Shown in pieces: positions 1 to 4,624 of a stretch of DNA of 4,624 nt. The stretch is from IMG/VR virus record IMGVR_UViG_2711768000_000008. The stretch is one strand, 5' to 3'. The stretch is from a virus (Duplodnaviria > Heunggongvirae > Uroviricota > Caudoviricetes). The notes under the pieces are model-generated. The model searched no databases. It was not told the origin of the DNA and saw nothing but the letters and a program-made list of their open reading frames with translations. The position numbers and the translations under genes are program-made. Each line of letters starts with the position of its first letter. The stretch's first letter is position 1.

Positions 1-151
1 CTCTTTAGAGTAACGTTGGGTTTTTCTGCTCATTATTAGCTCCTTCTGATGCCATTCTATTTCAGGAAGGAGTGTCCGTTAAACTCAGGCTACCTCAGGT
101 TATTCGCTTCTGGGCATGGGCGGATCAACAAATGATAGACGGTAATGCAGA

Positions 152-174
152 TTGTAACGCTCGCGGCGTTACAA
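152..174. repeat. Palindrome TTGTAACGC-n5-GCGTTACAA (iteron-like)
   Basis: Perfect 9-bp inverted arms at 152-160 and 166-174, read directly. The core 7-mer recurs at 363-369, 375-381 and 398-404. Confidence 0.5.
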
Positions 175-362
175 AAAGTGCAATAGATCGCATCACTTTT
201 ATGTCTGGTTTTGCTGATGCGTTAATTCAGGTTGGATGGCTGGTCGAAAATGACGGAGGGCTTTCTCTACCTAACTTTGAACGTCATAACGGAAAAAGCT
301 CTAAAAAAAACGGGCGGTTACAAACGAGCGAGTAACAAAAATACGCGAACTGAAACGAAAAG

Positions 363-405
363 GTAACGCTGCCAGCGTTACACAAACGGATCAAAAAGCG
401 TTACC
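363..405. repeat. Palindrome GTAACGCTG-c-CAGCGTTAC plus an extra GCGTTACC half-site (iteron-like)
   Basis: Perfect 19-bp palindrome at 363-381, with a further GCGTTACC at 398-405. It sits in an A-rich, purine-rich stretch of the initiator gene. Confidence 0.5.
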
Positions 406-780
406 AGAGGAAGAGGAAGAGGAAGATCTAAATACTGATCTCCCCCTCGCCAAAAACGAGCGTCTAAAAAATTCGAGCCGGAGGCTATTGAGCTGCCCGA
501 TTGGTTGCCGGAAACACTCTGGCATGAGTGGGTCCGGTTCAGACAGGCATTGCGAAAACCGATTCGAACGGAGCAGGGCGCTAACGGGGCGATACGGGAA
601 CTGGAAAAATTCCGTCAGCAGGGTTTTACACCTGAGCAGGTGATTCGACACAGCATCGCCAATGAATACCAGGGCCTGTTCGCGCCGAAAGGTGTTCGGC
701 CTGAGACGTTGCTCCGACAGGTTAACACCGTCTCGTTGCCGGACAGTGCGATCCCGCCAGGCTTCAGGGGGTAACGGACC

Positions 781-1211
781 ATGAAAAATATTGCGACAGG
801 CGGCGTTCTGGAACGCATCCGCCGACTGACCCCGCCACATGTAACCGCCCCATTCAGAACGGTAGCGGAGTGGCGCGAGTGGCAACTTGCTGAAGGCCAG
901 AAACGTAGCGAGGAGATCAACCGCCTGAATCGCCAGTTGCGGGTGGAAAAAATTCTGAATCGCTCAGGCATCCAGCCGTTGCACCGTAAATGCTCGTTTG
1001 CGAATTACCAGGTGCAGAACGACGGCCAGCGATACGCGTTAAGCCAGGCGAAATCCATCGCCGATGAACTGATGACCGGGTGTACAAATTTTGCGTTCAG
1101 CGGAAAACCTGGTACCGGGAAGAATCACTTAGCGGCAGCTATCGGGAATCGCCTGCTGAAAGACGGTCAGACAGTGATTGTGGTTACCGTGGCTGATGTT
1201 ATGAGCGCCCT
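781..1211 (+). CDS. DnaC-family helicase loader (phage paralog), 5' portion only; 3' end lost in the N run
   Basis: ATG at 781 follows a GGGG run at 767-770. The N-terminus, NRSGIQPLH, CSFANY, and the Walker A block FSGKPGTGKNHLAAAIGN followed by TVADVMSA all track E. coli DnaC as I recall it. Host DnaC is about 245 aa, so the true stop should fall near 1500-1540 inside the mask. The ORF-track extension to 1722 is an artifact of reading through N. Confidence 0.88.
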
Positions 1212-2602: not shown

Positions 2603-3289
2603 ATGACCCCAATAAACATATTTATGACAGTTGCTGATTTCAAACGGCCCAAATTGGAGCTCCCAAACGGGGCAAACAAACTACTACTGCACTCTTGCTG
2701 TGCTCCATGTTCCGGTGAGGTGATGGAGGCGCTTCAGGCCTCGGGAATCGACTACACCATCTTTTTCTACAACCCGAACATTCATCCTCAGAAAGAGTAT
2801 TTAATTCGTAAGGATGAGAATATTCGCTTTGCTGAACAACACGGCGTGCCGTTTATTGATGCTGATTACGACACAGACAACTGGTTTGAACGAGCCAAAG
2901 GAATGGAATGGGAGCCCGAACGAGGGATCCGTTGCACCATGTGTTTTGACATGCGTTTTGAGCGGACAGCGCTGTACGCCGCTGAAAATGGTTTCAGTGT
3001 GATCAGCAGTTCACTGGGCATTTCACGCTGGAAAAATATGCAGCAGGTTAACGACTGTGGGCGGCGAGCCGTCGCGCATTATCCGGGCATGGTGTACTGG
3101 GATTATAACTGGCGCAAGCAGGGCGGCTCGTCCCGTATGATTGAAATCAGCAAGCGCGAAAAATTCTATCAGCAGGAATATTGTGGCTGTGTGTATTCTC
3201 TGCGCGATACCAATCTACACCGCAAATCTCAGGGACGCCCTCTTATCAAAATTGGTCAACTCCACTACGGTAAAGAAGAGAAGGAGTGA
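2603..3289 (+). CDS. DUF208/QueH-family protein (putative B12-independent epoxyqueuosine reductase)
   Basis: 228-aa ORF with the N-terminal signature [14 protein letters not shown], which I recognise as the QueH/DUF208 hallmark, plus further Cys pairs (CTMC, CGC). No clear SD at ATG 2603; ATG 2624 is an alternative start. Stop TGA 3287-3289. Confidence 0.72.
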
Positions 3290-3438: not shown

Positions 3439-3688
3439 NNNNNNNNNNNNNNNNNNNNNNNNNNNNNNNNNNNNNNNNNNNNNNNNNNNNNNNNNNNNNN
3501 NNNNNNNNNNNNNNNNNNNNNNNNNNNNNNNNNNNNNNNNNNNNNNNNNNNNNNNNNNNNNNNNNNNNNNNNNNNNNNNNNNNNNNNNNNNNNNNNNNNN
3601 NNNNNNNNNNNNNNNNNNNNNNNNNNNNNNNNNNNNNNNNNNNNNNNNNNNNNNNNNNNNNNNNNNNNNNNNNNNNNNNNNNNNNNNN
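3439..3688. other. Run of 250 N (undetermined or masked sequence)
   Basis: Literal n characters, flanked by a candidate promoter upstream and a strong terminator downstream. Confidence 1.
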
Positions 3689-3884: not shown

Positions 3885-4172
3885 ATGAAAATCGAAGAAT
3901 TGCGTGAAATTTTTAGTGAAAATGGCCTCTATGCTGTGCGCGTTGAGAATGGAGCGATTGTCAGCCATTGCCGCATTAGATGTTTGCAATCTCAACAAAG
4001 GAAGAGCGGTGCTGTGTTATTTTATTTTTGTAATGGACTTCTGACGGACGGTTTTATTTTGCGTGAGGACGAATTTGTCACATCATTACGGGTTTTGAAA
4101 GAGATTGGTTTTAAGGCTGGTTTTCTGCTTTTGCTGAAGAATAAACTCATCTACAATCTTGAGCAGGATTGA
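3885..4172 (+). CDS. Hypothetical 95-aa protein, AT-rich, no family recognised
   Basis: ATG 3885 is the first start in an ORF that opens at 3816; GAAGG at 3871-3875. Visibly AT-richer than the neighbouring genes. Stop TGA 4170-4172. Confidence 0.55.
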   Translation: MKIEELREIFSENGLYAVRVENGAIVSHCRIRCLQSQQRKSGAVLFYFCNGLLTDGFILREDEFVTSLRVLKEIGFKAGFLLLLKNKLIYNLEQD

Positions 4173-4210
4173 ACTCCTGCTGTGTAACACCGTGCCACCG
4201 GAGAAAGCCG

Positions 4211-4564
4211 ATGGCACATATACAACTGGTCAAACAAACCTCTTCCGGATTACTTCTCCCGGCGACGCCGGAGAGTTGCGATTTTCTGCATCAAATCAAA
4301 ATAGGTGAGTGGATACACGCAGACTTTAAGCGTGTGTGTAACTACGCATTCCACAAGCGTTTTTTCAAACTCCTGCAACTGGGTTTCGATTACTGGACTC
4401 CGGTCGGTGGGGCGATCACGCCTCGCGAACGAAAACTGGTGTCCGGTTTCGTTGATTACCTGTGTGAATCAGTAGGCCGGGAACATACGCCAGCTCTGAG
4501 CGAAGCCGCAGAGCAATTGAGGTGTACTGGCAATAGCGGACACTACCATTTGTTCTTTTTTTAA
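4211..4564 (+). CDS. Hypothetical 117-aa protein, no family recognised
   Basis: GGAG at 4200-4203, 7 nt before ATG 4211. The ORF track starts it at TTG 4169, which has no SD. Ends in a T7 run (FFF then TAA 4562-4564). Confidence 0.55.
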   Translation: MAHIQLVKQTSSGLLLPATPESCDFLHQIKIGEWIHADFKRVCNYAFHKRFFKLLQLGFDYWTPVGGAITPRERKLVSGFVDYLCESVGREHTPALSEAAEQLRCTGNSGHYHLFFF

Positions 4565-4624
4565 GCAGCCATCTGATGATATTTTTCCCTGAAGGCTGCC
4601 GGGGAGATATTCCCCAGACGAGAG

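Follow-up and report, generated by a model that had tools for sequence, protein, structure and literature searches.

Phage SPP1 carries its origin oriL inside gene 38, the gene of its own initiator G38P, and the SPP1 sites are direct repeats. In phage lambda, the origin, ori-lambda, consists of dyad-symmetric iterons and an AT-rich tract midway through gene O, and in Shiga toxin (Stx) phages two extra iterons appear as 13 extra residues in the initiator (PMC7466680). The Rac prophage of Escherichia coli K-12 is said to have an active origin, oriJ (PMC3945230; Potrykus et al. 2000 as cited in PMC11014345); our literature search on oriJ and YdaU/YdaV found no sequence-level map of oriJ, the passages located only stating that Rac has an active origin. 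Here we analyse a stretch of 4,624 nucleotides of tailed-phage DNA (Caudoviricetes; IMG/VR record IMGVR_UViG_2711768000_000008), hereafter the window, in which short palindromes built from GTAACGC lie inside a ydaU-like replication initiator gene. Most probably these palindromes are the sites at which a phage replication origin, placed lambda-style within its own initiator gene, is recognised, and what the window holds is a relic of it.

The analogy with ori-lambda that was drawn in the initial annotation holds in architecture, extending to dyad sites in the initiator gene, a strand-asymmetric tract, a helicase or loader gene as neighbour and module exchange. At both loci the origin (a candidate here) lies inside the initiator gene, with repeated dyad-symmetric sites and an adjoining strand-asymmetric tract, and the initiator's N-terminal part goes with the sites whilst its C-terminal part goes with a helicase-loading partner encoded next door. 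As in the Stx phages, duplication of a site lengthens the protein, here through a 4-codon insertion at 142–153. However, where ori-lambda has four to six 19-bp iterons in one block, this locus has 7-bp half-sites at 11–12 bp in two clusters, one of which falls within the DNA coding for the (predicted) DNA-binding domain itself; the adjoining tract is a GA repeat instead of being AT-rich; and the same site sequence is kept across phyla. Nor is there a detectable sequence relationship with lambda O: an intact 262-aa homologue (789 bp, L001:2398–3186, NZ_CP065613) matches no Pfam family at E≤0.1, NCBIfam likewise gives none, and only its part covering residues 77–236 matches the phrog_678 ‘O-like’ profile. 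The same protein matches phrog_2509 ‘replication initiation protein’ with E=1.2e-89, its residues 1–262 lying on profile positions 1–277. The gene was thus rightly taken for an initiator gene, of the ydaU-like phage type; it is not a lambda O homologue, and the copy in the window is a pseudogene.

The candidate origin comprises the following elements (coordinates are those of the window):

142–148, plus strand: degenerate left half-site GTAATGC, with 1 mismatch, 12 bp before the half-site at 154
154–172, unstranded: palindrome 1, GTAACGC-TCGCG-GCGTTAC, encoding C-N-A-R-G-V-T
271–450, plus strand: A-rich, purine-skewed stretch with the second site cluster (GC content 0.40–0.48, AT skew +0.31 to +0.67)
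363–381, unstranded: palindrome 2, GTAACGC-TGCCA-GCGTTAC, in linker-coding DNA
398–405, minus strand: solitary right half-site GCGTTAC(C), encoding K-A-L-P in a frame other than that of the palindrome arms
406–426, plus strand: all-purine tract AGAGGAAGAGGAAGAGGAAGA of 21 nt, the candidate unwinding element, encoding an acidic EEEEEED linker

Exact copies of GTAACGC or its complement were found at 154–160 (+), 166–172 (−), 363–369 (+), 375–381 (−) and 398–404 (−), all five where they had first been noted. They form two perfect GTAACGC-N5-GCGTTAC palindromes at 154–172 and 363–381, with arms reaching 9 nt (TTGTAACGC/GCGTTACAA and GTAACGCTG/CAGCGTTAC), plus the half-site at 398–404. A sixth copy at 2406 is unrelated to the cluster. 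Over the whole window, 6 copies compare with 0.46 expected and none of 200 dinucleotide shuffles reached 6, so that the enrichment first proposed was confirmed. Including the degenerate copy, positions 142–405 hold five exact half-sites and one with 1 mismatch, laid out as degenerate left, left and right at 142, 154 and 166, left and right at 363 and 375, and right at 398; the purines of 406–426 follow directly 3′ of the last half-site. The unit therefore takes in GTAATGC at 142–148 and the purine tract beyond the sites of the initial annotation, and loses two partial copies that had been listed at 316–321 and 331–336: these are 5-mers only (GTTAC/GTAAC) that are not 7-mers at ≤1 mismatch, and their codons are not fixed in homologues. 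The placing of the cluster in the linker-coding part of the gene is right for palindrome 2 and the solitary half-site, but palindrome 1 lies in the sequence coding for the folded N-terminal domain (N-domain), where it encodes the loop between two helices of a predicted winged helix. The degenerate half-site sits in the 12-nt insertion (142–153) that is peculiar to the E. coli, Serratia and Pantoea type, most homologues having a 4-aa alignment gap at this point.

To assess conservation we used 75 homologous loci, which were taken from species-representative genomes via the peptide LPNFERHNG with the DNA motif unused in selection; counts are on 72 non-redundant loci, and a site match is the consensus with ≤3 mismatches. 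The loci span at least six phyla, those with the motif at both gene positions belonging to Enterobacterales, Pseudomonadales, Burkholderiales, Planctomycetota, Verrucomicrobiota, Ignavibacteriae and Thermoanaerobaculia, and their proteins are 31–71% identical to the query, save for two near-identical Shigella and E. coli loci (98%). The position of palindrome 1 (~+149/161) is matched in 59/72 loci (30 perfect), that of palindrome 2 (+335 to +413) in 58/72 (16 perfect), and both are occupied in 51/72, most of these 51 having an extra half-site and a GA-repeat polypurine tract beyond; the 5-nt spacer between the arms varies freely. The density of exact half-sites is 5.5 per kb over the gene's first 520 nt versus 0.18 per kb in the flanks. 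Of the 58 loci with palindrome 2, 35 have an extra right half-site 4, 5 or 16 nt past it, usually as GCGTTACC and mostly with C next. After the last half-site most homologues have a GA-repeat polypurine tract (e.g. AGAGAAGAGAAGAGAAG), for which the median longest run is 18 nt and the median fraction of same-locus background windows equalling that run is 0.

For a codon test we aligned 70 sequences, which gave 91 columns with enough sequences sharing the consensus amino acid. The most fixed of these columns fall within the two palindromes, the solitary half-site or the purine tract, the median column being at 0.52. Palindrome 1 is written with Asn AAC in 56/56 sequences, Ser AGC in 34/34, Val GTT in 55/65 and Gly GGT in 46/58; the solitary half-site with Leu TTA in 29/29 and Ala GCG in 27/29; and a further fixed site column is Val GTT in 31/35. 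The serine codon (one of six possible) and the leucine codon hold even in GC-rich hosts. In 19 of the 51 loci having both palindromes, their separation is not divisible by 3, and there palindrome 2 is therefore read in another frame. Conservation of the sites thus far exceeds coding constraint and reflects selection at the DNA level, as the initial annotation had anticipated; the fixed synonymous codons, the frame independence, the free spacers and a concerted change of half-sites (below) all bear this out. Given the fixed codons and the frame independence, the peptides ‘GNAxSVT’, ‘NAxSV’ and ‘ALP’ are a consequence of the DNA element and not its cause. The opposite view is that the repeats are due to chance, or to a repeated peptide x-N-A-x-x-V-T selected at the protein level in DNA that itself has no function. 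The intact E. coli gene does read both palindromes in one frame, encoding N-A-x-x-V-T, but the shuffled sequences never matched the observed count, the synonymous codons are fixed, the two palindromes are out of frame with each other in more than a third of the loci with both and the solitary half-site is in yet another frame, and in phage epsilon15 the first cluster is at +66 rather than +149. We regard this explanation as exceedingly unlikely.

A side observation from the codon test is that the residue-70 column has Val GTT in 27/31 sequences, at a V-T dipeptide ~30 nt past palindrome 1 (G-V-T-G-F). Many homologues may thus have one more conserved half-site, GTTAC, which the E. coli type lacks.

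Half-site arrays were scored with mismatches against each locus's own consensus. The median is 8 half-sites per gene, adjacent ones being 11–12 bp apart in 194 cases and then 22–24 and 33 bp, and the commonest orientation patterns place left half-sites ahead of right ones. Where the site sequence changes, it does so across the array. Five loci (L043, L056, L069, L071 and L075) have GTCACGC at every half-site, the solitary one included; the GTCACGC..GCGTGAC clade is made up of Pseudomonas, Paraburkholderia, Caballeronia and related loci, and in it the left-arm change is non-synonymous (Asn to His) and the right-arm change synonymous (GTT to GTG). L057 has CTAACGC..GCGTTAG at both sites; L040 has nine copies of GTTGCGC in two clusters and then a 19-nt purine run; and L073 and L078 have GTCCGC and GTCCGG half-sites. 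Phages epsilon15 and phiPSA1, whose N-domains share ~33% identity with the query, have GTCCGC-N7-GCGGAC at +66 and +345/366, plus extra half-sites and GCGGACC, and these are followed by the same purine tract (AGAGAAGAGAAG; AGAGAAGAGAAGAGAAGAGAAGA) despite the different half-site sequence. In epsilon15, the first cluster is displaced from the usual +149 to +66. The site sequence therefore shifts with the clade of the N-domain whilst the layout and the purine tract stay constant, as expected of an initiator and its sites.

The palindromes could instead act as hairpins or cruciforms in single-stranded DNA (ssDNA) or mRNA, serving as a single-strand initiation signal, a primosome-assembly signal or a translational or transcriptional control signal. 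Both give stable hairpins, at −9.4 and −7.6 kcal/mol (z −5.5 and −4.5), an alternative pairing of the solitary half-site with the left arm of palindrome 2 is possible (−10.3 kcal/mol), arrays of left and then right half-sites could make nested stems, and some family members have the DnaT-like ssDNA-binding domain PF17948. These energies cannot separate the explanations since any palindrome folds; the comparative counts do. The sequence of the arms, and not merely their pairing, is conserved across phyla. Departures from the consensus break a pair 86 times and keep it 16 times, 14 of the 16 being one clade-wide A-to-C switch at position 3, and the innermost pair is disrupted 45 times without a single compensating change, although such counts are biased towards the consensus because the sites were found by consensus. 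In addition, solitary half-sites that have no partner are conserved and change in concert with the others, the 11–12 bp register suits one face of duplex DNA, and a search of positions 1–1210 gave no Rfam match, the sole hit (1027–1062) being at chance level (E=0.65). We therefore consider a hairpin function unlikely.

The N-domain was modelled using AlphaFold2 with a 49-sequence alignment. The prediction has helices at residues 16–25, 29–49, 61–68 and 73–80, a beta hairpin at 84–91 and a short helix at 95–99, with a predicted local distance difference test score (pLDDT) of 81–96 over most of the domain; a long basic helix (101–124), a disordered linker and a separate C-terminal helical part follow. 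The N-domain is thus predicted to be a winged helix, and a winged-helix-type N-terminal domain is a likeness to SPP1 G38P and other proteins called ‘replisome organiser’. The intact homologue also has a weak profile match to phrog_13246 ‘replisome organizer’ (E=0.002); it has no match to Pfam Phage_rep_org_N.

From the arrangement of sites, domain and tract we infer that the N-domain binds the sites, that unwinding takes place in the purine tract and that the region acts as an origin. In this scheme the winged-helix domain would bind 7-bp half-sites spaced 11–12 bp apart as dimers or higher oligomers, at two clusters that lie ~190–230 bp from each other, one in the domain-coding DNA (142–172) and the other in the linker-coding DNA (363–405). 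The resulting nucleoprotein complex would destabilise the adjoining GA-repeat polypurine tract (406–426), and the variable C-terminal domain would recruit the product of the neighbouring helicase or helicase-loader gene, in the window the DnaC-like YdaV. The sites, the purine tract and the DNA coding for the N-domain would travel as a single module.

The comparison with K-12 Rac bears on this last point. The two loci share a genomic position (ydaT–ydaU–ydaV), and using BLASTP K-12 Rac YdaU aligns with the intact protein only over residues 139–262, i.e. over the C-terminal 124 aa, at 81% identity. The N-terminal part of K-12 YdaU, in contrast, is an unrelated DUF1376 domain, for which the intact initiator has no Pfam match. 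Both loci have repeats in the linker-coding DNA just ahead of the shared C-terminal part, but the K-12 repeat is ATGTTCAAACA, in direct and inverted copies, rather than GTAACGC. Among homologues, the N-terminal ~120 residues combine with many different C-terminal parts. Together with the K-12 swap, this indicates that the N-domain and the repeats travel together, apart from the C-terminal domain. DNA-level selection on the sites, the architecture of the module, its co-variation and its gene context are all observed in the comparisons with homologues.

Two fusions of the N-domain to a DUF1627 (YdaW-like) protein were also seen. In P0012 the join is directly past ‘KALP’, at the solitary half-site and purine tract, so that the recombination junction here falls on the candidate origin; in P0027 the proteins are joined earlier, at ‘LPNF’, inside the N-domain. 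Such junctions raise the possibility that the conserved DNA is a module-boundary ‘linker’ which promotes homologous exchange of initiator domains and has no role in replication. C-terminal domains do switch directly past the purine tract, the two DUF1627 fusions point the same way, and K-12 YdaU turns from unrelated to 81% identical near this point. Exchange alone nonetheless leaves the palindromic symmetry, the 11–12 bp arrays and the second cluster in domain-coding DNA unexplained, as it does the concerted change of half-sites with N-domain clade, and a conserved origin would more simply account for recombination at the boundary as a side effect. We give this idea very little weight.

The gene context favours the proposed origin. 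In 45 loci the next gene encodes DnaB (11), a lambda-P-like protein (10) or a DnaC/IstB-like protein (9). The N-domain family is large: at 50% identity, E≤0.001 gives 3,831 clusters and E≤1e-10 gives 823. Cultured members include epsilon15 (Salmonella), SPN1S, TL-2011b (E. coli), Xanthomonas CP2, Xylella Usme, Pseudomonas PAN70 and phiPSA1, and Ralstonia phages; they are annotated ‘replication initiation protein’ or ‘primosomal protein I’. The circular record of Xanthomonas phage CP2 (L081; NC_020205) is opened inside the initiator gene, the coding sequence running from 42178 across the start to 231.

The frequent annotation ‘primosomal protein I’ in phage members recalls DnaT, and the gene pair resembles dnaT–dnaC. 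The last 19 residues of the intact protein (244–262; window 718–771; ..VSLPDSAIPPGFRG) show a weak likeness to the C-terminal end of DnaT from E. coli (E=0.006), and Klebsiella homologues retain PDTEIPPGFRG. As judged from sequence, the DnaT-like tail and the shared ydaU–ydaV/dnaT–dnaC order hint at a common tail that may contact DnaC. We rejected an identification of the protein as DnaT (NCBIfam NF002770), the score being 16.2 bits against a cut-off of 201 with only these last 19 residues matching. The resemblance is limited to the exchangeable C-terminal part and does not involve the palindrome-associated N-domain.

The sites could also be bound by the initiator or by another phage protein for regulation (autorepression, a roadblock or copy-number control), with the true origin lying elsewhere. 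Inverted repeats of iteron plasmids typically serve as operators to which Rep dimers bind, and this general parallel favours such a role, as does the position of the sites within a transcribed gene; moreover, clusters ~200 bp apart could form a repression loop. The analogy has its limits in that the iterons of plasmid Rep proteins (RepA, pi, RepE) are direct repeats of ~19–22 bp outside the rep gene, unlike the short inverted half-sites found here within the gene. Autoregulation also offers no obvious role for a conserved polypurine tract past the last half-site, and the flanks, with only 0.18 half-sites per kb, showed no further cluster of conserved repeats. The lambda iterons are themselves dyad-symmetric and in-gene (PMC7466680), and regulatory and origin functions are not exclusive. 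A purely regulatory role is in our view improbable, to about the same degree as the hairpins.

The broken initiator gene of the window and its two frameshifts are as follows:

96–774, plus strand: ydaU-like replication initiator pseudogene, from three-frame translations and alignment to intact 262-aa genes
303–310, plus strand: A8 run (A6 in intact genes), frameshift site
440–441, plus strand: 10-bp deletion (TCCCCCTAAA, between direct TCCCCC repeats), second frameshift, from alignment to intact genes

Translation follows frame 3 to ~310, frame 2 to ~445 and frame 1 to the stop at 772–774. The A8 run in place of A6 amounts to a +2 frameshift at 303–310, and it is this run, the loss of 10 bases after 440 and a 5′ end replaced by an insertion sequence (IS) that make the gene a pseudogene. 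Accordingly, the sites in the window are only a relic, or are usable only with a matching initiator supplied in trans. Four database versions of the protein (P0001, P0002, P0003 and P0006; 208–218 aa) lose frame within or after the homopolymer-rich stretch past the sites, a stretch of A runs and TCCCCC repeats that in the window includes 303–310, 440–441 and 466–471. The out-of-frame versions reflect either frequent gene decay in Shigella and E. coli or recurrent sequencing error.

Several points weigh against an origin of the kind proposed. The initiator of the window is dead. In the E. coli type the AT-richness of the purine tract is no more than moderate (GC ~0.47), which makes its role in unwinding a guess. 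No clear helical phasing is seen in the spacing of the two clusters (R 0.34–0.41 for periods of 10–12 bp). The locus counts come from consensus-based detection with ≤3 mismatches and are biased towards the consensus. A verrucomicrobial clade (Akkermansia, Prosthecobacter; L046–L051, L054, L060, L064, L065, L067 and L070) has no clear half-sites at the usual positions; its origin may be displaced or of different specificity, and weak palindromes were seen further downstream in this clade, near +527 and +709. Lastly, a literature search that left most subscription journals outside its reach found no paper mapping an origin in this family, the papers found for the motif, epsilon15 or DnaT-like initiators being concerned with primers and unrelated work only.

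Two further features give the context of the candidate origin:

1–95, minus strand: end of an IS3-family insertion sequence, with the orfA start codon at ~33; outside the candidate origin
781–1211, plus strand: ydaV, predicted DnaC/IstB-like helicase loader, its 3′ part masked by N

Positions 1–101 share 99% identity with DNA of an Stx2a phage containing transposase open reading frames of the HTH_Tnp_1 and rve types. The IS end stands in for the first ~103 nt of the initiator gene, with the break at ~95; homology to intact ydaU begins at 97, and 97–1210 is 93–99% identical to ydaU–ydaV of Rac-like E. coli prophages. An intact YdaV homologue matches the Pfam families IstB_IS21 (E=1e-19) and Bac_DnaA (E=2.5e-8). 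At the right end of the window, 4561–4623 (−) encodes the C-terminus of the same IS3-family transposase (orfB, SRLGNISPAAFREKYHQMAA*). Both copies are on the minus strand, the left one contributing the start of orfA and the right one the C-terminus of orfB, and the window is thus a ~4.4-kb prophage fragment between two IS copies. It may be an entire short-read contig that was broken at IS repeats. A DUF1367 gene at 4169–4564 covers only profile positions 1–102 of 198 (E=1.5e-46) and is apparently truncated by the right-hand IS. Runs of N at 1212–1602 and 3439–3688 hide the 3′ part of ydaV and the region downstream of queH. The latter gene, at 2603–3289 in the prophage early region, is intact and encodes the tRNA-modification enzyme QueH (epoxyqueuosine reductase); the intact relative L001 has queH too, with the toxin gene hokD downstream of it.

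A broader proposal, which we put forward tentatively, is that these loci represent a previously undescribed, self-contained replicator cassette spread across bacterial phyla in thousands of phage and prophage lineages. In such a cassette the winged-helix and linker codons of the initiator would spell its own binding sites, the peptide G-N-A-x-S-V-T would be owed to the DNA site, the GA-repeat tract would unwind, and the specificity would have been switched several times together with the domain (GTAACGC, GTCACGC, GTTGCGC, GTCCGC). What sets the family apart is the conservation of the site across phyla and the writing of a site in the codons of its (putative) binding protein. The element proposed here would provide a sequence-level origin for a large initiator family that lacks a Pfam model, the Rac-like prophages of E. 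coli and Shigella included, and a natural series of initiator/site specificity switches that could be used to study recognition. A joint search for the motif and the purine tract might help to locate origins in prophage and metagenomic contigs, and the site region may account for the domain swaps at this boundary. The family is also a clear case of DNA function dictating protein sequence, in which an otherwise variable linker retains ‘NAxSV’, ‘ALP’ and an acidic/charged run owing to the sites that underlie them.

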